Shown here in pieces: positions 2,172-56,455 of a stretch of 64,000 bases of DNA; position 1 is the stretch's first letter, and each line of letters starts with the position of its first letter. A program made the translations under genes and the position numbers. Source of the stretch: an uncultured Candidatus Binatia bacterium (lineage in GTDB: Bacteria; Desulfobacterota; Binatia; Bin18). The stretch spans positions 53,953 through 117,952 of the forward strand of contig OZ252051.1 of the NCBI GenBank assembly GCA_965247985.1, in the 5' to 3' direction. The notes beneath the pieces were generated by a model that saw only the letters and a list, made by a program, of their open reading frames with translations, ran no database searches and was not told the origin of the DNA.

Positions 2172-3512
2172 CTACGCCTTCGGCTGCAAGCCGAGGTCTA
2201 CCAGCGGAGTCCGGTCCACGACCGGCATACGTCTTGTCCCCGGAGTGAGTTTGACCGAGCCGGGTATGCGGGTGAATGGATCGACCAGATCGATTTCCTT
2301 GGCGTATTCTTTGACCGCGGGAATGACCTCTTGGCCAAGCAGGCGGATGCTGGTCAGGCGATCTTCATTGCTGATGGGGCCTTGGACCTGGAAGCAGGCG
2401 AAGGTGCCCGGTCGCAGCACCCGGATCATGGTCTTGATTTTCTCAATGACCGTCTTGGGCGAGCCGACGATCATCAGATAGTCATCCTGGGCGCGTTTAT
2501 ACGACTTCTCCAGTTTTTGGCGGACCTCGCCGAGGTCGGTACTCTTCTTCTTCCGGCCCTGCTGGGCTTCTTTGAGCCGGTCCGAATCAACCCCGACCCA
2601 GCCACCGCTCGGCCGCTGGGCGAGCAGGCGGATGGCATTTTTGGAATTATAGCCCGGCGGTAAGGTGTGTTCCGGTCTGGAGAATGCACTTGCTCCACCG
2701 CCCCATACAAAGCCTTTGCCCAGCTCTTGCGCTTTTTCATCCGTCTCCGCACAGAACACACCTATCAAATAGGCGAAGTTCTCGGTGCTGGCCTGATAGC
2801 CGTTTTCCGCCGCGGTATCGGCATAATAGTCCAGCAAATCGCAGGTCGGACTCAGGGCCGTTACCAGGGCGAGATAGGGGTAATTATGCTGGGCGGCCCA
2901 ATGCACGGTCTCGGGACTCAGCACCCCCGGAATCCACATTTGCGGATGCGGTTTTTGGTAGGGTAAGGCCCACGGGTTCACGTGGCGATAGTGAAAATGC
3001 TTACCTTCGTAACGCCACGGGCCGGGTTTGGTCCAGGCCTGAATAATGAAATCGTGGGCTTCGTTGAACATCTCACGGTTATAGGCTGGGTTGGCATTAT
3101 TAAAGAACTGCTCGCTGCCAGCGCCGCGCACCCAGCCGGTGACTAAGCGACCACGCGAGATCAGATCGATTTCCGCCAGCTCTTCCGCCATCCGGAGCGG
3201 ATGCTTCAGAACAGGCAGCGGGTTACCGATCAGGACGATCTTGGCTTTGCTGGTAATGCGCGCCAGGATGGAGGCCTCAACATTCATGACGCTGCCCATG
3301 CAAAAAGGGTTGCCATGGTGCTCGTTCAGCATGAGCGCATCAAAGCCAACTTCTTCGGCATAGCAATATTCGTCCAGAAAGAAGTTGTAGTCATCAGCCG
3401 CCTTTTCGCGGTCAAAGCGTGCGTTGGGCAGGGCAAAGAAACCTCGGTGCTCAAGCACTTCGTCTTCGTTTATCCACCGATACGGTCGCTCAGTAAAATA
3501 GCCAAATAGCAT
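2172..3512 (-). CDS. luciferase-like monooxygenase (LLM) family flavin-dependent oxidoreductase
   Basis: 446 aa. LLM hallmarks (NEHHGNP, TIM-barrel regions, large insertion). RBS GGAGAG upstream. Confidence 0.8.
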   Translation of the reverse strand: MLFGYFTERPYRWINEDEVLEHRGFFALPNARFDREKAADDYNFFLDEYCYAEEVGFDALMLNEHHGNPFCMGSVMNVEASILARITSKAKIVLIGNPLPVLKHPLRMAEELAEIDLISRGRLVTGWVRGAGSEQFFNNANPAYNREMFNEAHDFIIQAWTKPGPWRYEGKHFHYRHVNPWALPYQKPHPQMWIPGVLSPETVHWAAQHNYPYLALVTALSPTCDLLDYYADTAAENGYQASTENFAYLIGVFCAETDEKAQELGKGFVWGGGASAFSRPEHTLPPGYNSKNAIRLLAQRPSGGWVGVDSDRLKEAQQGRKKKSTDLGEVRQKLEKSYKRAQDDYLMIVGSPKTVIEKIKTMIRVLRPGTFACFQVQGPISNEDRLTSIRLLGQEVIPAVKEYAKEIDLVDPFTRIPGSVKLTPGTRRMPVVDRTPLVDLGLQPKA

Positions 3513-3541: not shown

Positions 3542-3596
3542 AAATGAGTAAACGTACCAACATCTGCATATCTGTTGAGAGCGCGTTTATTTATTT
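3542..3596. promoter_or_regulatory. palindromic leader element, copy A (GAAATGAGTAAACG...core CCAACATCTGCATATCTGTTGAGAGCG...CGTTTATTTATTT)
   Basis: Lies 30 bp upstream of the LLM start at 3512. Right arm degenerate and overlaps the enoyl-CoA hydratase stop codon (3591-3593). Same core as copies B and D. Confidence 0.55.
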
Positions 3597-4376
3597 AAAT
3601 ACAGGCTTCCGTTTTTCCACAAACGCCCGGGCCGCCTCTTTGGCATCCTCGCTCCCCGTCAGCTCGTGCGTCATATTTTGCTCAAAGCGATACCCATCGC
3701 GCAGATCCATGAATTCAATCGCATTCATGGCATGTTTGGCAAGCCGGATGGCCAGCGGACTTTTGTCGGCAATCACTTGGGCCTGGGCGCGGGCTTCGTC
3801 CATGAGTTGCTCCGGCGGAACAACTTTTTCAACAATGCCCCGACGGTATAACTCCTGCGCGCCGATCCGCTCTCCCGTGTACATCATCTTGCGGGCTTTA
3901 TAGACACCAAAGAGGCGCTGGGTATGGCGACCGCCCCCCAACAAACCAACGTCGATTTCGGGCAGACCCAGCAGCGCCCGTTCTGACGCAATCAGCATAT
4001 CGCACGATGCTACCAGGGCCAGCCCTCCACCCAGAGCCGGGCCATTGATCGCGCCGATGACGGGGACGGAACATTCCAGAATAGAATGAAAAGCTTCGCG
4101 GGCCGCCCGCGAGTGGGCCCACATGGCTCCGTGACGCGGCTGTTGTGCGCCGTCATCCAGCGAGCGCGAACGCGCCTTCATATCCGCGCCGGCGCAAAAA
4201 CATTTCCCCGCCCCGGTAAAGATGGCCACCCGGACATCGGGACGATTATTCAGTGCATCAAAGGCGGCTTGAATCTCGTCAAACATCTGCCGATTCATGG
4301 CATTCACGGGCGGGCGATCAATTGTGACCGTGGCAATATAGTCTCTGATATCGGTTTTAATGCTTTCGGCGTCCAT
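3591..4376 (-). CDS. enoyl-CoA hydratase/isomerase (crotonase) family
   Basis: Crotonase signature VAIFTGAGKCFCAGADMK. Start preferred at ATG 4376 (MDAESIK...) with AGAGGTG RBS. The track ORF extends to 4403. Confidence 0.85.
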   Translation of the reverse strand: MDAESIKTDIRDYIATVTIDRPPVNAMNRQMFDEIQAAFDALNNRPDVRVAIFTGAGKCFCAGADMKARSRSLDDGAQQPRHGAMWAHSRAAREAFHSILECSVPVIGAINGPALGGGLALVASCDMLIASERALLGLPEIDVGLLGGGRHTQRLFGVYKARKMMYTGERIGAQELYRRGIVEKVVPPEQLMDEARAQAQVIADKSPLAIRLAKHAMNAIEFMDLRDGYRFEQNMTHELTGSEDAKEAARAFVEKRKPVFK

Positions 4377-21158: not shown

Positions 21159-21312
21159 GACTTCATCCCTCCTCTATGGATAGTGAGATTATATTACCGG
21201 GAGCATATGTCTTGCCCCTGTCGGTTTCAAGTCTTGTGGGTACAGCGAAAGAGGAGAGCGCAGCTTGTGACCATACAGAGAAGGTGGTAGGACGCAAGGC
21301 AACGTATTGCGC

Positions 21313-21349
21313 TGAACCGATGAACCGATGAACCGATGAACGAATGAAC
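21313..21349 (+). promoter_or_regulatory. tandem octamer array TGAACCGA x3 + TGAACGAA + TGAAC, 16 nt upstream of the amidohydrolase-2 start
   Basis: Seen directly. Perfect 8-bp period. Followed by GGGAGGG RBS and ATG 21365. Confidence 0.5.
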
Positions 21350-21364
21350 TAGGGAGGGACGAAA

Positions 21365-22474
21365 ATGAGTCGCACCTATAACGTTATTGATTCAGACGGT
21401 CATGTTTTAGAACCGCCCAATTTTTGGGCCGACTATATTGAACCGGCATACCGAGACCGCGTGCCCGAACTGATTGTTGATACAGACGGCAAAGAGCGCC
21501 TGCGTATTGAAGGTCGCGTACTGGGAGGACAAAAAGGCTTGGGCTTTGCCGGTGCCATTGGCGCCCGCGATGGCAATGCCTCGACTGACATTAAGTACGT
21601 AGAGGGTCGTCAAGGCGGGTTTGATCCACACGCGCGTATACCGGACATGGAACTGGACGGCATAGACGCCGTTTTTCTGTATCCCACCCTCGGCCTTTTT
21701 TCTGGAGCTATAGAAGACGTACCTCTCGCTGCGGCCACCTGCCGAGCGTATAACCGCTGGCTGGCCGATTACTGTAAGCCCTACCCCGACCGGCTTTTTG
21801 GCGTAGCCATGCTGCCGATGCAATCCATCGAGCTGGCGATTGAAGAAATGCGCTACGCTCGGAATGAACTTGGGATGCGGAGCGGCTTTCTGCGTCCGAA
21901 CCCGTATAACGACCGCATGCTTGGTCATAAGGATTACGATGTATTCTGGGCCGAAGCCCAAGAGCTCGACTTTGCCATCGGCGTTCACGAAGGTACCGGC
22001 GGCATGCCGGCCGCGGGGGCCGACCGGTTTGAGGAGCTTGCCCCTCGGCATATTGTTTCTCATACCGTGGAAATGATGCTGGCGAGTTTGAGTATTATCT
22101 GGGACGGTGTATGCGAGCGTTTTCCGAAGCTGCGCATTGCGTTCTTGGAGTCAGGCGGTGGCTGGATTGCCCCTTGGCTGGATCGTATGGACCGCCATTG
22201 CGACGATCATGGGGTGTTCACGGATTCGCCCCTCACCCTGCTCCCGAGCGAATACTTCAAGCGCCAGTGCTGGATTTCGTACGAACCGGTTGAGGGCAGC
22301 TTGGCCCATCTGGTTGATTATATTGGCGCTGAAAAGATTCTGTGGGCAACCGATTATCCGCACCCGGATGGCTTCTTTCCTGGGGCTCCCAAAATGATCG
22401 CGGATAAACTATCGGATGAGAACAAACACAAGGTGTTGGCGGAGAGTGCGAAGCAGTTTTATGGGCTGAGTTAG
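21365..22474 (+). CDS. amidohydrolase-2 family protein, paralog 2
   Basis: IDSDGHVLEPPNFW N-terminal motif. 369 aa. Confidence 0.85.
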   Translation: MSRTYNVIDSDGHVLEPPNFWADYIEPAYRDRVPELIVDTDGKERLRIEGRVLGGQKGLGFAGAIGARDGNASTDIKYVEGRQGGFDPHARIPDMELDGIDAVFLYPTLGLFSGAIEDVPLAAATCRAYNRWLADYCKPYPDRLFGVAMLPMQSIELAIEEMRYARNELGMRSGFLRPNPYNDRMLGHKDYDVFWAEAQELDFAIGVHEGTGGMPAAGADRFEELAPRHIVSHTVEMMLASLSIIWDGVCERFPKLRIAFLESGGGWIAPWLDRMDRHCDDHGVFTDSPLTLLPSEYFKRQCWISYEPVEGSLAHLVDYIGAEKILWATDYPHPDGFFPGAPKMIADKLSDENKHKVLAESAKQFYGLS

Positions 22475-22480
22475 TTTGTT

Positions 22481-22505
22481 GCAGGGTGCCTCCTGTGCAC
22501 CCTGC
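22481..22505. terminator. 9-bp perfect hairpin GCAGGGTGC-ctcctgt-GCACCCTGC between convergent genes
   Basis: Begins 7 nt after the TAG at 22474. No clean U-tract. Confidence 0.35.
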
Positions 22506-22685
22506 GCCTTAGTCCGTCGCAGCCGAATCGGGCACAAAAAAGACAAACGTGCGGGCTTCAATACTTTCTCTGGCCAGCACGTCCGGCGGACTGTTCGGGT
22601 CGTCAAAGCCGGTATGGGCGGTAAAGCGTGCCCGCCCGTCATTCAGCGCGGTGTTTCTCAAATCCTATTGGCTCACTTTGATGTC

Positions 22686-23141
22686 TCATGGCAAGGGTGC
22701 GAAATGCATGCTGATAATCATCCACGCGCCATCGACTTGCGCGTACGTCAGCATATACTGCCCAGGAGTCGTGCTTGTCCGCTCTCCTTTGATCTGAGTC
22801 GTGAGCTGATAATTCCCCCATGCCACTCCAGTCGCTCTGGTGATTCGATATTTCGGATATACGATTTCGAGCACGGCAGACTCATGTTCATCGAAATACT
22901 CTTGCACGGCCTGTCTGAATGCCTCCTTGCCCTCGATGGGAAACGGCGAGTACAGTCCATACAGGACGATACCTTCGTGAGCAGTGGCAACAGCCGCGTC
23001 AAGGTCGCCGGTATTGAGGGCTTTCATCTCGGAGTTGAAAGCAGCAATGAGTGCCTCGCGTTCCGATTGGCCGAGGGCCGGAGACACACCGCTCAGCAAG
23101 AGGCTACAGGTGCAGACCAGGCATATGCGTAGAAGAGTCAT
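22686..23141 (-). CDS. secreted NTF2-like (SnoaL/DUF4440-like) protein, paralog 1
   Basis: Start chosen at ATG 23141 (MTLLRICLVCTCSLLLSGVSPALG signal peptide). The track ORF is over-extended into the leader. ~152 aa. Confidence 0.6.
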   Translation of the reverse strand: MTLLRICLVCTCSLLLSGVSPALGQSEREALIAAFNSEMKALNTGDLDAAVATAHEGIVLYGLYSPFPIEGKEAFRQAVQEYFDEHESAVLEIVYPKYRITRATGVAWGNYQLTTQIKGERTSTTPGQYMLTYAQVDGAWMIISMHFAPLP

Positions 23142-23174
23142 GCTCAGCGCGTTCCCGCTTCTTTGTCCGCTCCG

Positions 23175-23230
23175 GAAATGAGTAAACGCGCCAACATCTG
23201 CATGTCTGTTGAGGGCACATTTACTCATTT
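23175..23230. promoter_or_regulatory. palindromic leader element, copy B (GAAATGAGTAAACG-cgccaacatctgcatgtctgttgagggca-CATTTACTCATTT)
   Basis: 34 bp upstream of the NTF2-like start at 23141 and 10 bp after the stop of the upstream NTF2-like gene. Confidence 0.6.
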
Positions 23231-23239
23231 TTGCCCTCA

Positions 23240-23701
23240 TTATAGCGACGAGAAGTCCAAGGCAACGACCAGCCATTTGCCTTCCTCCTTGGCATAGGTA
23301 AAGGTGTAGCGTCCATGCAGTATTCTCCGCGGACCAACCCGTGGTTGCTCTCGCACGGTATAATGTCCCCACGCCAGCCCACTCGTTTCGATAACAAAAA
23401 ATTTCGTGTTGACAGAATTCCATTTGACATAATCATGGTTCGTAAAATACTCCTGCACGAGTTGTTGAATGGCGGCTTTCCCTTCGACTGCAAAGGGAGA
23501 CAACGTACCGAATAAGACAACATTCTCGTGCGCTGTCGCCGTGAAAGCAGTTGGGTCTTGTCCATTGAATAATCGGATATCAGCCTCAAAAGACTGTTGG
23601 ATGTCAGTCAGGTCATCTGCCCGGACAGACACGCCTCCAAACAGCAGGCTGATTCCCAGCAGGCTGATTCCCATGACGAGACTGCGGCGTAAACCACTCA
23701 T
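23240..23701 (-). CDS. secreted NTF2-like (SnoaL/DUF4440-like) protein, paralog 2
   Basis: 153 aa. Signal peptide MGISLLGISLLFGGVSVRADD. Similar to CDS 22686 (e.g. FGTLSPFAVEGKAAIQQLVQEYF versus YGLYSPFPIEGKEAFRQAVQEYF). Confidence 0.65.
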   Translation of the reverse strand: MSGLRRSLVMGISLLGISLLFGGVSVRADDLTDIQQSFEADIRLFNGQDPTAFTATAHENVVLFGTLSPFAVEGKAAIQQLVQEYFTNHDYVKWNSVNTKFFVIETSGLAWGHYTVREQPRVGPRRILHGRYTFTYAKEEGKWLVVALDFSSL

Positions 23702-23801
23702 ATCACCTCTCCAGCTCTCTTCTTCGATATGTCCATTCCGGTGTCAAGCCTCTGCCCCGCCTCTCAGCGGCTCGGCAGCGTGCTCCGTATGGATTGACCT
23801 C

Positions 23802-23856
23802 AAAGAGTAAACGTGTACAACAGCTTGGAATCAGTGAAGGACACGTTTACTCTTTC
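23802..23856. promoter_or_regulatory. palindromic leader element, copy C (variant: arms AAAGAGTAAACGTGT / ACACGTTTACTCTTT, different 24-nt core)
   Basis: Perfect 15-bp inverted arms. In the divergent spacer 100 bp upstream of NTF2-like paralog 2 and 176 bp upstream of the tandem CoA-transferase. Confidence 0.55.
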
Positions 23857-24031
23857 AATCCCCGGACAGGGATACTATCCCAGGTTCCGGCAAGAGAGCA
23901 AACGGACCGTCAGCCCGGAACCGAGAAAAACAGTAGGAAATTCGCTCGATTAGTGTTAGAGAAACGTCTTTCGACCCAGACCGGGAAAGATGCCGGAGCC
24001 GTCCTATCCGCTCTGGCAAAGGAGGGAGTTT

Positions 24032-26434
24032 ATGCAGGGTCTCGAAGGTGTCAAAGTTCTGGAACTCGGCCATCTTGCTTCGGCGGCATATGCGACAAAA
24101 CTCATGGCTGACCTTGGAGCGAACGTCGTCAAAGCCGAAGAACCAGGCGGCGACCGGGCCCGTTGGCGCGGGCCTTTTCCAGGCGGCACAGCAGACCCGG
24201 AGCAGAGTGGTCTCTTTTTATCCCTCAATACCAATAAGCGCAGTGTCACGCTTGATTTTGCACCCGAGAAAGACCAACTCTCCCGGCTCGTGCAGTGGGC
24301 AGACATCCTGGTCCATAATTACGCGCCGCCGCGCATGACCGAGTTGGGCATTGATTATCCGACCTTTCGAGAACTCAATCCCCGGCTGGTTATGTGTTCG
24401 ATTACGCCATTTGGCCTGACCGGTCCGTATACACACTATAATGCCTATGACATCACCGTTGCCAATGCCGGCGGCTGGGCCTGGTTGAGCCCTGGGGCCT
24501 CAGACTATCCAGAGTTGCCACCCCTCAAAGCGTATGGCCAGCAGACGGAATTCCAGGGCGGGCTGGCTGCCACGGTCGCCACGCTGGGCGCGTATTATCG
24601 GGCGTTGGAAACCGGGCGCGGGGAGCATATTGATCTAGCCGTTCAAGCCTATGTGTCCTCCTTCATGGAACAGAGCTTCGTCCATTATACGTATGGGAAG
24701 AAAGTCGCTTCACGCCTGGGCAAGCGGCTGCTGTATCCGTGGGGGATTTATGAGTGTCAGGATGGCCTCATCTTTGTGGTGACCGTGGAAGAAGACCAAT
24801 GGGAACGCCTGGTTGACCTCATGGATAACCCGGAGTGGGCAAGCTGGGAGATCTTTCAAAACGCGATAGAGCGGGCCAAGAACCAGGACGTGCTCAAAAT
24901 GTATCTGGATGAGTGGTTCAAGCAGCAGAAAGTGTATGAACTGTTTCGGGCCGGCCAAGAGCGACGCATCTGTTTTGCTCCGGTTCAGAGCATGCGTCAG
25001 TTGGCTGAAGACGAGCACCTGCACGCGCGCAAGTTTTTTGTGGAGGTGGAACATCCGAAGGCGGGTACGTTGACCCATCTCGGCCCGCCCTACCAACTGC
25101 GCGAGCCATGGTGGCAGATTCGTCGCCCCGCCCCGCAGTTGGGCGAACATAACGCCGAAGTCCACACCGAACTCCAAAGCATAGCGCCGCCCCCCACTCC
25201 CCAACCCCCAACCCCCAATCCCGCTCTTCCCTTAGCCGGCGTGCGGGTGACTGATTTTACCTGGGTCTGGGCCGGTCCGTTTGGCACGATGCACCTGGCG
25301 CACCTGGGCGCTGAGGTGGTTAAGGTTGAATCACACGCCCGGGTGGATATTAGCCGCCGGCTGCCGATCTACCCGGAGGGTATGAAAGGCGGGGTGAATC
25401 GCTCCGGCATTTTCAACGAGTGGAGCATGGGCAAGAAAAGCCTGCTCCTCAACGTCGCCAAACCTGAGGGCATGCGGATTGTCAAAGAACTCATCAAGAA
25501 GAGTGATGTGGTGGTGGATAATTTTGCGACTGGCGTCATGGACACCCTTGGTCTCAATTACGATGATTTGAAAAAGATCAAGCCGGATATCATTGTTGCT
25601 TCGATCTCAGGTTTTGGCCATTCCGGCCCGCAGAAAAAATATATGGGCTATGGTCCGGCGATGGCTCCGGTCAGCGGTTTATCGTCCCTCACCGGCTATA
25701 AGGATGGCTCGCCGCAAGAGGTCGGGATTTCGTATGGCGACCCGAATAGCGGCATTCACGCCGCCGCGGCAATCTGCGCCGCGCTGGCCGCTCGACAACG
25801 CACCGGCCACGGCCAGTATATTGATGTGTCGCTGTTTGAGGCCGTGGCCGCCCTCGTGTCCGAGGGCTGGATGGACTACGTCATGAACGGCAGCCAGCCA
25901 GAGCGCGACGGCAACCATGATTCCCTCATGGCTCCGCATAACTGCTTTCGCTGTGCCGGCGAGGATGCCTGGGTGTCGATCGCGTGTGGCTCGGACGAAG
26001 AATGGCAAGCTCTGTGTCAGGCGATTGGCCAGTCCCAACTCAGCCTTGATACACGGTTCAGTACCGTTCCCAATCGGAAGGCGAACGAAGACGAGCTGGA
26101 AAAACTGCTGACCGAGTGGACCAGCCAACGCGACCGCTGGGAAGTGACGCAGATCCTCCAAGAGGCCGGTGTGGCCGCCTTTCCAGCGATGAGCGCCGCT
26201 GATCTTGCGGAAGATAAGAATCTGGAAGCGCGCGGAGCGTTCTCGCGCCTGCCCCATCCGGAAGTCGGCCCCCGCCTCCATATGGGTATCCCCTGGTTAC
26301 TGACCGAATCCCCCAACGGCGTCCGCACACCGGCTCCGTTGCTCGGCCAGCATACGGACGAGGTGATGCAGGACGTGCTGGGATATGCGCCGGAAGAAAT
26401 TATACGGCTCAAAGAAGAAAAGGTGCTGGATTAG
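24032..26434 (+). CDS. tandem-fused family III CoA-transferase (two CaiB/BaiF domains joined by a Pro-rich linker)
   Basis: Two complete CaiB/BaiF-like units: GVKVLELGHLASAAYATKLMADLGANVVKAEEP... and AGVRVTDFTWVWAGPFGTMHLAHLGAEVVKVESH.... Linker PPPTPQPPTPNPALP. Start preferred at ATG 24032 after AGGAGGGAG. Confidence 0.85.
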   Translation: MQGLEGVKVLELGHLASAAYATKLMADLGANVVKAEEPGGDRARWRGPFPGGTADPEQSGLFLSLNTNKRSVTLDFAPEKDQLSRLVQWADILVHNYAPPRMTELGIDYPTFRELNPRLVMCSITPFGLTGPYTHYNAYDITVANAGGWAWLSPGASDYPELPPLKAYGQQTEFQGGLAATVATLGAYYRALETGRGEHIDLAVQAYVSSFMEQSFVHYTYGKKVASRLGKRLLYPWGIYECQDGLIFVVTVEEDQWERLVDLMDNPEWASWEIFQNAIERAKNQDVLKMYLDEWFKQQKVYELFRAGQERRICFAPVQSMRQLAEDEHLHARKFFVEVEHPKAGTLTHLGPPYQLREPWWQIRRPAPQLGEHNAEVHTELQSIAPPPTPQPPTPNPALPLAGVRVTDFTWVWAGPFGTMHLAHLGAEVVKVESHARVDISRRLPIYPEGMKGGVNRSGIFNEWSMGKKSLLLNVAKPEGMRIVKELIKKSDVVVDNFATGVMDTLGLNYDDLKKIKPDIIVASISGFGHSGPQKKYMGYGPAMAPVSGLSSLTGYKDGSPQEVGISYGDPNSGIHAAAAICAALAARQRTGHGQYIDVSLFEAVAALVSEGWMDYVMNGSQPERDGNHDSLMAPHNCFRCAGEDAWVSIACGSDEEWQALCQAIGQSQLSLDTRFSTVPNRKANEDELEKLLTEWTSQRDRWEVTQILQEAGVAAFPAMSAADLAEDKNLEARGAFSRLPHPEVGPRLHMGIPWLLTESPNGVRTPAPLLGQHTDEVMQDVLGYAPEEIIRLKEEKVLD

Positions 26435-41686: not shown

Positions 41687-43192
41687 ATGATGCCTCCAGA
41701 CTTGTTCGTCCTCTTTATTATGGGTCCGGTTGTCACGGCAGCCTTTTTAGCAGCTTTTCATAAACGGAACGTATTTCAGCGTGGGGTGAGTCTCAGCGTC
41801 AGTCTGGGGCTGTGGGGGCTGTCCGTCGTGGGTCTGCTCTCTCTGTTGCAAGACGGCCAGCAGGGGATTGTCGTGCTGCGGATGGGCAACTGGGCCGCGC
41901 CTTACGGCATTATCCTGGTTGCCGACGTACTCAGTATGACTATGGTCGTCCTGACCATGACGGTTGCGGTTGCCGTGGTGGCCTTCTCGCTGCGAACGGT
42001 TGAGCAAGCGTATCAGGAGCATTTTTATTACCCACTCTTCTTTATTCTCATTATGGGTGTGAACGGTGCCTTTCTCACTGGAGATTTATTCAATCTGTTT
42101 GTCTTTTTTGAAGTGTTGCTGATCGCGTCGTTTGCGCTCCTAGCCCTTGGCTCACAACCGGGCCAACTGCGAGAGACGGTCAAATACGTGGTTATTAACC
42201 TGATCGCCTCGACCTTTTTTCTGATCAGCCTGGCCGTGCTGTATCGAACGATGGGCACGCTCAATATGGCGGACCTGGCCTATAAGATTCAGATGACGTC
42301 CGGGGAGCTGGACCCGACGCTGACAATTTTGGCCCTGGTCTTCTTGTTTGTGTTTGGCACCAAGGCGGCAATCTTTCCGCTCTATTTTTGGCTGCCCGGA
42401 CCGTATTTCCAGCCCGCAGCGGGATTGAGTGCGTTTTTTGGTGGGATTCTGACCAAGGTGGGCGTGTATGCCATCTTCCGCACATTTACGCTGATCTTCC
42501 GTCATGACCCATCCATGACCCATGAACTCCTGCTTATTCTGGCTGCCCTGACTATATTACTGGGCGTCTTTGGCGCGTTGTCCCAGATGGATATGAAGCG
42601 CATTTTGTCCTACCACATCATCAGTCAGATCGGCTATCTCATTCTGGGTATAGGCTTGTTTACGCCTCAGGCGTTGGCCGGCGCCCTCTTTTATATGGTG
42701 CCGTACGTACTGGCGAAGTCGGCACTCTTCTTGATTGCTGGCGTCGTGCAGGAGGCAACCGGCTCGACCCACCTCAAAGCGGTGGGTGGTCTGCAATCCC
42801 ACTCAATACCCTTGAGTATTCTCTTTTTACTGGCAGCATTGAGCCTTGCCGGTATTCCTCCGTTAGCTGGGTTTTTTAGTAAGTTTATCGTATTACAGGC
42901 AGGTATGGAGATTGGTCGCTACGGCTATGTCGGCATTGGGCTCTTGGGTGGCCTCCTGACTTTGGCCTCTATGCTCAAAATCTGGAATGGAATCTTCTGG
43001 GGCGAAGAAGTAGGCGACCGCCGGCCAGTGTCGCTCCAACCCCTCTTCCCCGGTGTTGTCCTGCTCGTCTTTTTCATTGTTGGGATCGGGTTGTTTCCAG
43101 GTGTACTGTACAGCGTGACTAAGGTGGCCGCCGCACAAGTCTATGATCCGCGTGTATATATTGCTGCGGTCTTGGGACCAGACGTCTTTTGA
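41687..43192 (+). CDS. mrpD: Mrp antiporter subunit D (NuoN/NuoM-like)
   Basis: 501-aa polytopic protein of the proton-pumping antiporter family. Confidence 0.9.
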   Translation: MMPPDLFVLFIMGPVVTAAFLAAFHKRNVFQRGVSLSVSLGLWGLSVVGLLSLLQDGQQGIVVLRMGNWAAPYGIILVADVLSMTMVVLTMTVAVAVVAFSLRTVEQAYQEHFYYPLFFILIMGVNGAFLTGDLFNLFVFFEVLLIASFALLALGSQPGQLRETVKYVVINLIASTFFLISLAVLYRTMGTLNMADLAYKIQMTSGELDPTLTILALVFLFVFGTKAAIFPLYFWLPGPYFQPAAGLSAFFGGILTKVGVYAIFRTFTLIFRHDPSMTHELLLILAALTILLGVFGALSQMDMKRILSYHIISQIGYLILGIGLFTPQALAGALFYMVPYVLAKSALFLIAGVVQEATGSTHLKAVGGLQSHSIPLSILFLLAALSLAGIPPLAGFFSKFIVLQAGMEIGRYGYVGIGLLGGLLTLASMLKIWNGIFWGEEVGDRRPVSLQPLFPGVVLLVFFIVGIGLFPGVLYSVTKVAAAQVYDPRVYIAAVLGPDVF

Positions 43193-55650: not shown

Positions 55651-56358
55651 TCAGTATTCAACCTGCCGCCCAGCTATCTCGGACAAATATTCAACTTTCT
55701 CTAAAAAAGCCTGGGCTCCTCCAGACGTCCCTTTGGTATTCATCTGAAAGCCAAATCGACTGATTGGGGGAACAACAGTGTAACCAAACTGAGTTCGGAA
55801 GGCCTGGTCCAAATCAAATTCAGTCACAACACGCTTCCCCACCGGCACCCCACACGGTGTACAGAAATATCGTCCGCCGGTTTTATAGTAATTCCCGGTA
55901 TACGCCCGATTTACCTGTTCCTTTTCTCCTAAGAAGAGGCCGATAAAATACGGGGCATTAGGGACAAAGAGCGAGCCGCTCTTTATTTTTTTTGTCCCAA
56001 AGGTTGTCATAACCGCAATAGGGACCGCGGTAATCCCATTGCTCCAATCCGCCCCGCGTGGATAGCGTTCGACACCCCAATGAATACGAATTCGCTTGAC
56101 CTGGGACAAATACAAGGGCAGCTCGAACAGCCCTCCTTTTTGTCGGGAGGTCTGTAATACGAGTCGATTGTTTTTGAAGCGCGGCTGTAAATCTTCTGCA
56201 TCAAGGCGAAAGGTAAATCCTTGCTGCTTCAACCATCCATCTGCCGGACCGTCTGGGTGGCCGGAGAAATCAATCGTATGCAGAGGAGCTGCCAGAGCAA
56301 CGGCCTCAGAGAGTCCACACCACAGCAGACACACGCACAGAATTCTGAGAGTCCACAT
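55651..56358 (-). CDS. secreted hypothetical protein (possibly DUF3047-like; unverified)
   Basis: Start at ATG 56358 (MWTLRILCVCLLWCGLSEAVALAAP signal peptide). ~235 aa. The track ORF extends into the leader element. Confidence 0.55.
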   Translation of the reverse strand: MWTLRILCVCLLWCGLSEAVALAAPLHTIDFSGHPDGPADGWLKQQGFTFRLDAEDLQPRFKNNRLVLQTSRQKGGLFELPLYLSQVKRIRIHWGVERYPRGADWSNGITAVPIAVMTTFGTKKIKSGSLFVPNAPYFIGLFLGEKEQVNRAYTGNYYKTGGRYFCTPCGVPVGKRVVTEFDLDQAFRTQFGYTVVPPISRFGFQMNTKGTSGGAQAFLEKVEYLSEIAGRQVEY

Positions 56359-56399
56359 CACACCACAACGATTACGGGTAGGTGTCTGCATATTTCTCC

Positions 56400-56455
56400 A
56401 AATGAGTAAACGTGCCAACCTCTGCATGTCTGTTGGAGGGCGCGTTTACTCATTT
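56400..56455. promoter_or_regulatory. palindromic leader element, copy D (AAATGAGTAAACG-tgccaacctctgcatgtctgttggagggcg-CGTTTACTCATTT; perfect 13-bp arms)
   Basis: 42 bp upstream of the secreted-protein start at 56358. Confidence 0.6.

Follow-up and report, generated by a model that had tools for sequence, protein, structure and literature searches.

Dispersed, probably mobile palindromes beside an ancient pair of predicted exported NTF2-like genes in uncultured Binatia

Did the duplication that gave rise to two neighbouring genes also copy a regulatory element, or did the element reach each of them on its own? The question is raised by two adjacent minus-strand genes, named here gC and gB, in a 64,000-nucleotide (nt) stretch of DNA from an uncultured Candidatus Binatia bacterium (contig OZ252051.1, positions 53,953 to 117,952 of the forward strand; assembly GCA_965247985.1). 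This whole stretch is referred to below as the window. Both genes encode small proteins of the NTF2-like type with putative export signals, and both are preceded by a copy of one palindromic element. A preliminary description of the locus took the palindrome for a gene-specific regulatory leader that the duplication had included or that was recruited later. The explanation that accounts best for the data, and that is held here to be likely, is an ancient cassette of exported NTF2-like proteins, beside which dispersed mobile palindromes of a Binatia family have arrived independently. The features concerned are collected in Table 1.

The palindrome is one discrete 54-nt unit with the layout AAAGAGTAAACGTGTCC-N20-GGACACGTTTACTCTTT and the family consensus AAAGAGTAAACGTGTCC - TCCAATAGACATGAGATGCT - GGACACGTTTACTCTTT. 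Its 17-nt arms are nearly invariant, while the core of about 20 nt is asymmetric and more variable; the arm positions show Watson-Crick pairing in 77-99% of 149 distinct copies. Within the window, the pattern GAGTAAAYG-N15-35-CGTTTACTC finds three copies (B, C, and D), as against none in 100 shuffles, and nhmmer adds copy A and nothing further. Folded as RNA, copies B, C, and D reach -25 to -28 kcal/mol (z about -4 to -5); the fold of copy A is no better than those of shuffles. As had been claimed, a copy does lie upstream of each gene of the pair. Copy B sits in the 98-nt gC-gB spacer, inside the range first described (22686-23701), and copy C lies outside that range.

Are these two copies as old as the duplication? 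In a Binatia locus that is syntenic to the window and 81-85% identical to it (L015, contig OZ242288.1), the orthologue of copy C is found at 3802-3849, and copy B is absent, the orthologous gC-gB spacer being 65 nt long and without the element. In L002, a second contig of the same metagenome whose identity is 98.2-98.6% along some 6 kb and whose gC protein is the same, copy B is present and copy C is exactly absent, with the junction GGATTG/GAGGTCAAT; the presence and absence of copy C are seen by setting L001 against L002. With copy D, which belongs to an unrelated gene, copy B shares 91% identity, versus 76% with copy C. Nine other loci with the same gene cassette (56.6 kb) hold no copy. Because L015 lacks copy B and L002 lacks copy C, because B is closer to D, and because other cassettes lack the element, its arrival was independent of the duplication. 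Copies B and C are therefore independent and evolutionarily recent occupants of two promoter-proximal spacers, and were not carried there by the duplication.

The leader between copy C and the start of gC (window 23702-23801; 2846-2957 in L001/L002; also L015) is itself hypervariable, with different segments of about 55 nt and deletions among contigs that are otherwise 81-98% identical.

The two genes are indeed tandem paralogues, as the preliminary description had it. Their proteins share 35% identity over their full length (BLASTP, E 3e-32), the DNA identity is 60%, and the two peptides quoted at the time (FGTLSPFAVEGKAAIQQLVQEYF and YGLYSPFPIEGKEAFRQAVQEYF) are both found in the translations. 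A 245-amino-acid (aa) open reading frame (ORF) at 22686-23423 in the mechanical ORF list is an upstream over-extension of gB, whose start was set at the ATG at 23141 because the start of its orthologue in L015 (MTLLRISLV) matches. Both proteins exceed the gathering cut-off of the Pfam family DUF4440 (PF14534; 35.1 bits for gC and 36.8 for gB, cut-off 25.2). For SnoaL_3 (PF13474, cut-off 22), gB scores 38.2 bits and gC, at 16.3 bits, stays under the cut-off. Both assignments belong to the NTF2-like clan, which bears out the SnoaL/DUF4440-like classification by the very Pfam search that had been suggested for it. The NCBIfam model TIGR02246 (SgcJ/EcaC family oxidoreductase), a name attached to some JGI homologues, does not reach its curated cut-off of 33.95 bits with either protein (gC 17.3, gB 21.6).

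How old, then, is the pair? A search with gC of a 5.8-billion-protein collection returned 75 homologue clusters, whose members are nearly all about 150 aa long and whose conserved mature domain begins D-D-L-A-D. Genomic contexts were fetched for eight homologues, to which the syntenic locus L015 from the DNA scan was added; the nine contexts are the window, L015, L118/L119, L120, L121/L122 (Methylomirabilota genome GCA_037024555.1), L123, L125, L126, and L127. In all nine, a type-1 gene (the type of gC) is followed directly downstream by a second DUF4440/SnoaL_3 gene (type 2, the type of gB), which encodes 143-163 aa and lies 20-89 nt away. The genes around the cassette differ between contexts. 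In a pairwise matrix of five contexts, type-1 proteins are 47-88% identical among themselves, type-2 proteins 41-74%, and the two types only 29-38% to each other; the gB orthologues in L015, L118, L120, L121, and L123, all adjoining type-1 genes, are 44-74% identical. Since identity within types (41-88%) exceeds that between types, the duplication predates the spread of the cassette across lineages, and its great age also follows from the orthologous type-1/type-2 pairs that sit in unrelated neighbourhoods and in another phylum. Judged from these comparisons, gC and gB form an old, widely conserved cassette of paralogous NTF2-like proteins. No conserved third gene lies downstream: the small ORFs found there in L118, L121, and L123 are unrelated to one another and to the window's 50-aa ORF. 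A PNPOx_N-family gene stands beside the cassette in three contexts (L118, L120, and L126), and a GYD gene in three (L121, L125, and L127), two of which have DUF3303 as well.

Against this background, the idea that the duplication copied the leader with the gene, so that copies B and C would be paralogous remnants of one ancestral regulatory element, is hardly credible, even though a copy in the same orientation upstream of each paralogue is just what it predicts. The paralogues are only 35% identical and their split is older than the spread of the cassette across phyla, cassettes elsewhere have spacers of 20-89 nt without any element, and the likeness of B to D and the empty orthologous sites in L015 and L002 contradict it directly. 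A gene-specific leader included in the duplication is thus set aside, in view of clean presence or absence, of the closeness of B to D, and of the abundance of the repeat, described below. The other version of the claim, later recruitment, is compatible with independent insertion, its regulatory role being unproven.

The element is by no means peculiar to this locus. One genome per species (185,579 species) was scanned with the pattern GAGTAAAYG-N24-34-CGTTTACTCWTT, for which we estimate about 12 hits by chance. At least 115 stretches matched, and among the matches listed all but two single hits came from Candidatus Binatia metagenome-assembled genomes (MAGs) or from one chromosome labelled Thermodesulfobacteriota (OZ219926.1); several of those listed are complete chromosomes of 4.6-5.2 Mb. 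An nhmmer search of the 8-kb loci (about 0.9 Mb) located 159-168 places, or one additional copy per 16.4 kb, which is the same density as in the window (4 per 64 kb). Extrapolated from this sampled density, a Binatia genome would hold roughly 300 copies. As many as 122 of 156 copies lie outside called genes, and some are found between housekeeping genes: rpsP, a KH-domain gene, rimM, trmD, rplS, fabH/fabF, and pheT. The arm consensus AAAGAGTAAACGTGTCC has 41% G+C, in a background of 57.6%, and does not contain GTAG. A literature search found no description of Binatia or Binatota repeats.

Two side observations concern this census. The remaining 34 of the 156 copies overlap genes called by our own crude gene finder. 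The chromosome OZ219926.1 (L033, L034, L068, L070, L072, L091, and L108) carries many copies and has orthologous occupied sites in common with Binatia MAGs; this "Thermodesulfobacteriota bacterium" is probably a Binatia relative under another taxonomic label.

How such a unit comes and goes was followed by locating, for each copy, its 120-nt flanks in the other loci. Among the orthologous pairs thus obtained, 124 have both sites filled and 33 have one filled and the other empty. The latter represent about 14 independent sites with flanks 80-97% identical, and the difference is exactly the block AAAGAG...CTCTTT. Examples are L036:4091 versus L063 (CCTG/ATCTCG), L027:742 versus L086, L105:7801 versus L060, L077:2090 versus L067, and L030:1114 versus the window's own empty site. 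None of these filled/empty alignments shows a target-site duplication: 2-nt direct repeats flank 5 of 116 de-duplicated sites, where about 7.6 are expected, and longer ones hardly occur at all. In the flanks there is a weak symmetric preference, KGCY..RGCM, of about 0.2 bit, with no conserved target tetranucleotide. At one site, a deletion between ACGCGC microhomologies has left a solo arm.

The core can also turn around. In 10 of 56 orthologous filled/filled pairs it is inverted in place between species with arms and flanks unchanged, as in L017:3605 versus L079:5928, where 25 of 25 flanking positions are identical on both sides. Such flips suggest that the arms, 17 nt each, recombined or allowed a template switch. 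The core does not follow the direction of the gene (41 versus 32 in co-directional spacers), and no replication-strand bias was detected: neither local GC skew (p 0.42) nor the strand on which most genes lie (p 0.63) is associated with the orientation. In-place flipping explains this lack of relation to the adjacent gene, to skew, and to the majority strand. On OZ244620.1, between 700 and 2640 kb, 13 of 14 sampled copies have the same core orientation; the sample is small and other chromosomes have no such run.

With its exact gains and losses, the element fits a non-autonomous mobile unit resembling repetitive extragenic palindromes (REP/REPIN) or miniature transposable elements with inverted repeats (MITEs). 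A gene-specific leader does not fit, because of these exact gains and losses, of the core flips, and of the copies in housekeeping operons.

What can be said of the proteins themselves? An AlphaFold2 model of gC, built on 33 homologues, has a predicted local distance difference test (pLDDT) score of 90.2 and displays the NTF2-type cone. The fold is the alpha+beta cone in which three helices lie on a curved antiparallel sheet: helices span residues 27-45, 49-53, and 74-86, and long strands run between 56 and 151. The top 50 Foldseek matches in the PDB are all NTF2-like or cystatin-like, with probability 1.00. The best is 3h51, an uncharacterised Xanthomonas protein (TM score about 0.70-0.76, root-mean-square deviation 2.0 A over 121 columns, 21% identity), which is also the sole clear sequence-profile match in the PDB (E 9e-10). 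At the level of the fold there are matches to LinA, BaiE, and putative (scytalone) dehydratases, with 11-19% identity. The residues conserved in the family are N45, H57 (or D), Y84, W110, Y113, R130, Y131, Y135, and W142. The fold is thus confirmed and export is probable, whereas an enzymatic assignment is not possible, because Foldseek returns generic NTF2-like proteins and enzymes only at such low identity. The preliminary description had likewise given these proteins no defined function.

Export is predicted from the N-termini. Both proteins have a basic n-region, a hydrophobic h-region, and a cleavage motif of small residues (VRA/DD in gC and ALG/QS in gB), so that the signal peptides proposed earlier are present as far as layout and our heuristic can tell. 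The latter asks for a basic n-region, about 10-15 hydrophobic residues, and small residues at -3 and -1. A hydrophobic N-terminal leader is seen in 33 of 33 aligned homologues, with a conserved hydrophobic pattern and a variable sequence. The strict heuristic is passed by 26 of them, and the other 7 have an acidic residue close to the start or a truncated N-terminus. In the gC model, residues 1-30 are helical and of low confidence, as expected of a signal peptide, with pLDDT 61-69 over the leader versus at least 90 in the domain. The layout is that of a Sec substrate of signal peptidase I, and both proteins are probably exported; with Sec-type signal peptides in a diderm lineage, they should work in the periplasm. 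Since type 1 and type 2 stay side by side in a constant order whatever genes surround them, a joint function is most likely. Its simplest form, suggested by gene adjacency, would be a periplasmic hetero-oligomer of type-1 and type-2 proteins, whose cone-shaped pockets might bind or transform a small hydrophobic molecule.

Several points weigh against the account given so far, and they are best considered together. On the protein side, export is read from sequence features and the heteromer from adjacency. For the element, no transposase or other mobilising gene was identified: E. coli RayT, used in phmmer and jackhmmer searches of all ORFs of at least 70 aa in 984 kb (about 1% of the genomes), had no match below E = 3, and no transposase lies between closely spaced copies. 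Insertion and precise loss look alike at individual sites. Other features suggest that the element may do more than spread selfishly. The arms are 95-96% identical between orthologues, versus 82-86% for the flanks and 88% for the core. Among 120 intergenic copies, 113 adjoin at least one gene start, at a median of 33-38 nt from the start codon, and many lie 8-26 nt from it, just upstream of the ribosome-binding site. Last, signal- or membrane-type N-termini show an enrichment of about 3-fold among genes whose start lies within 150 nt of a copy (23% versus 8%, p 3e-4), as counted over 113 Binatia loci (among L003-L117) and the window, with orthologues clustered, by a crude heuristic that admits some false positives.

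The conserved arms, the proximity to gene starts, and the bias toward exported proteins would all suit a true cis-regulatory site, either the operator of a dimeric regulator or an RNA switch in the 5' untranslated region, governing a large regulon of envelope and exported proteins that includes gC and gB. So would the fact that exported-type proteins follow 3 of the window's 4 copies, and that the core reads CCTCC (anti-Shine-Dalgarno-like) in one orientation and GGAGG in the other. Yet the element is gained and lost as exact 54-nt blocks rather than by gradual turnover, it numbers some 300 near-identical copies per genome, and it is also found within ribosomal-protein and fatty-acid operons. 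Core orientation is random relative to the gene, exported-protein genes included (12 sense, 8 antisense), copy C sets apart two contigs that are 98% identical and whose gC proteins are the same, and Rfam has no match in the whole window at gathering thresholds. The strand test on the stem is equally negative, since G-T and A-C mismatches are symmetric (19 versus 15 at position 14, for example) and so give no strand-specific RNA signal. Such a site is accordingly rated rather unlikely. Double changes do occur in the stem, from A-T to T-A 16 times and from T-A to C-G 20 times; as they look like subfamily markers, covariation cannot separate the constraints of RNA, single-stranded DNA, and dimeric proteins.

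With start codons so close, most copies must be transcribed in a leader or an inter-cistronic spacer. Once transcribed, the element would form a stable hairpin of 15-17 bp in the 5' leader or between cistrons, and it may thereby change mRNA stability or processing, here perhaps the gC:gB expression ratio. Such would be its likeliest effect if it resembles REP elements in E. coli operons.

Could the hairpin chiefly be an intrinsic and possibly bidirectional terminator or attenuator, separating gC from gB and from upstream genes? It is stable, it is flanked by A- and T-tracts (AAAGAG and CTCTTT), and in 32 of 89 cases the stop codon of the adjacent gene is the TAA inside the arm (GAG TAA ACG), which often places the element right behind a stop. 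However, its loop of about 20 nt far exceeds the 3-8 nt of an intrinsic terminator, the base of its stem is A/T-rich with no free U-tract, and a terminator scan of 22450-24100 did not call it. Convergent gene ends, the expected place of terminators, flank only 7 of the 120 copies, and others stand 8-26 nt before start codons in operons that transcription has to traverse. Given the loop, the absence of a scan call, and the rarity at convergent ends, a terminator role is unlikely, and that it should be the main role is decidedly so. In one filled/empty pair (L043:6233 versus L114), a TAA that arose at the insertion junction has taken the place of the original TGA stop. A unidirectional promoter, with a -35-like TAGACA in the core and a -10-like TACTCT in the arm, was also considered and dropped: the sigma-70 scan did not call it, TAGACA is absent from many core variants, and core orientation is independent of gene direction.

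A bolder proposal, and a very improbable one, is that the element has been domesticated as a leader module, invertible in place, whose two states would tune translation or mRNA stability, with a preference for genes of exported or membrane proteins, gC and gB among them. Recombination or template switching between the arms would flip the 20-nt core, and the loop would then display either CCUCC (anti-Shine-Dalgarno-like) or GGAGG (Shine-Dalgarno-like) a few nt upstream of the ribosome-binding site. If true, this would give Binatia a heritable two-state tuner acting genome-wide.

Table 1. Coordinates of the gene pair, its predicted signal peptides, and the palindromic element in the window
Feature	Position	Strand	Description
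gC, type-1 NTF2-like protein, predicted exported	23240..23701	-	153 aa; ORF and translation; DUF4440
gB, type-2 NTF2-like protein, predicted exported, paralogue of gC	22686..23141	-	151 aa; SnoaL_3/DUF4440
gC predicted signal peptide	23618..23701	-	residues 1-28, MSGLRRSLVMGISLLGISLLFGGVSVRA, followed by DD; n/h/c layout in sequence
gB predicted signal peptide	23070..23141	-	residues 1-24, MTLLRICLVCTCSLLLSGVSPALG, followed by QS; heuristic and same layout in type-2 orthologues
Copy C, 54 nt	23802..23855	-	100 nt upstream of gC start; arms 15/15 complementary; -25.4 kcal/mol, z -3.99
Copy B, 55 nt	23176..23230	-	gC-gB spacer, 35 nt upstream of gB start; arms 17 nt, 88% complementary; -27.7 kcal/mol, z -3.98
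Copy D	56400..56455	-	8 nt upstream of start of a predicted exported 246-aa protein (55651-56391, -)
Copy A, one (left) arm degenerate	3542..3596	-	between enoyl-CoA hydratase and luciferase-like monooxygenase genes; nhmmer 69.7 bits
Empty site	43176..43182	.	element present at orthologous position in L030, L069, and L098; flank mapping and filled/empty alignment

Elsewhere in the window, the genes on either side of copy A are identified by Pfam as an enoyl-CoA hydratase (3591-4376, minus strand) and a luciferase-like monooxygenase (2172-3512, minus strand). The N-terminus of the 246-aa protein behind copy D resembles a signal peptide, and neither Pfam nor NCBIfam has a match for the protein; the GGAG ribosome-binding site of its gene is immediately next to the arm of the copy. 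The neighbours of the cassette are catabolic genes of the acyl-CoA type, namely a double family-III CoA-transferase, an amidohydrolase_2, a dienelactone hydrolase, and MaoC-type dehydratases, a neighbourhood kept only in close relatives. The CoA-transferase gene (24032-26434, plus strand) is divergent from gC, in L015 as well, and encodes an 800-aa protein with two family-III domains, seen as two Pfam stretches (696.7 bits). A short tandem repeat (CCGATGAA) of some 3-4 units, at about 21304-21351, stands between the gene for the dienelactone hydrolase and that for the amidohydrolase; L015 (1372-1419) and L042 have the palindromic element instead at this exact site.

These results change how the locus should be read. 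The palindromes of the window are not to be taken for a shared operator or riboswitch that links its genes, and their status as a phylum-level dispersed repeat alters the interpretation of every other copy in it. What is gained is a compact and abundant marker with strain-level presence and absence in uncultured Binatia. Its properties are unusual (it duplicates no target, its core inverts in place, it stands 8-40 nt ahead of start codons, and it is biased toward exported-type genes) and could be used for strain typing and for the study of hairpin-dependent mobility. On the side of the proteins, the fixed pairing of two diverged NTF2-like proteins, both predicted to be exported, defines a small and tractable "two-subunit" family. 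No particular activity is indicated, and the pair merits structural and biochemical study.

How do the cassette and the element compare with what is already known? Nothing in either is categorically new: the element adds a family, found here in uncultured Binatia, to the small dispersed mobile palindromes already known. The closest structure to the proteins, 3h51 ("CaMKII association-domain-like"), has the same alpha+beta cone as gC, but the window's proteins are predicted to be exported and come in a fixed pair of two diverged types.

Among mobile units, the first comparison is with REP/REPIN elements, extragenic palindromes mobilised by RAYT transposases (PMC2817692, PMC3116915). Like them, the Binatia element is a short, lineage-specific extragenic palindrome with hundreds of copies per genome, as against the more than 100 by which such repeats are recognised. 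Its hairpin of two inverted arms around a short spacer is the REPIN layout, and it is found between genes, including within operons, with presence or absence at orthologous sites. It differs in having no 5' GTAG-type head, in arms that are not G+C-rich and are not themselves palindromes, and in its preference for spacers near gene starts over those between convergent genes. In the 984 kb searched, about 1% of the genomes, no gene for a RAYT (a Y1 HUH transposase) was found.

With MITEs, such as Correia/NEMIS (reviewed in PMC3184786), the element shares its non-coding nature, conserved terminal inverted repeats around a variable centre, discrete insertion polymorphism with exact ends, and a position near gene starts, where expression can change. 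It differs from them in the lack of target-site duplication. Typical MITEs are about 100-400 nt long, and at only 54 nt the Binatia element is much shorter. To our knowledge, no parent insertion sequence has the same ends. Elements of the IS200/IS605 type and their non-autonomous derivatives, which move as single strands by "peel and paste," insert and are seamlessly lost without target duplication. Compared with these, the Binatia element has no conserved target tetranucleotide and no detectable replication-strand bias, and no TnpA was found for it; what it has in common with them is gain and loss without target duplication, and a plausible dependence on hairpins in DNA.

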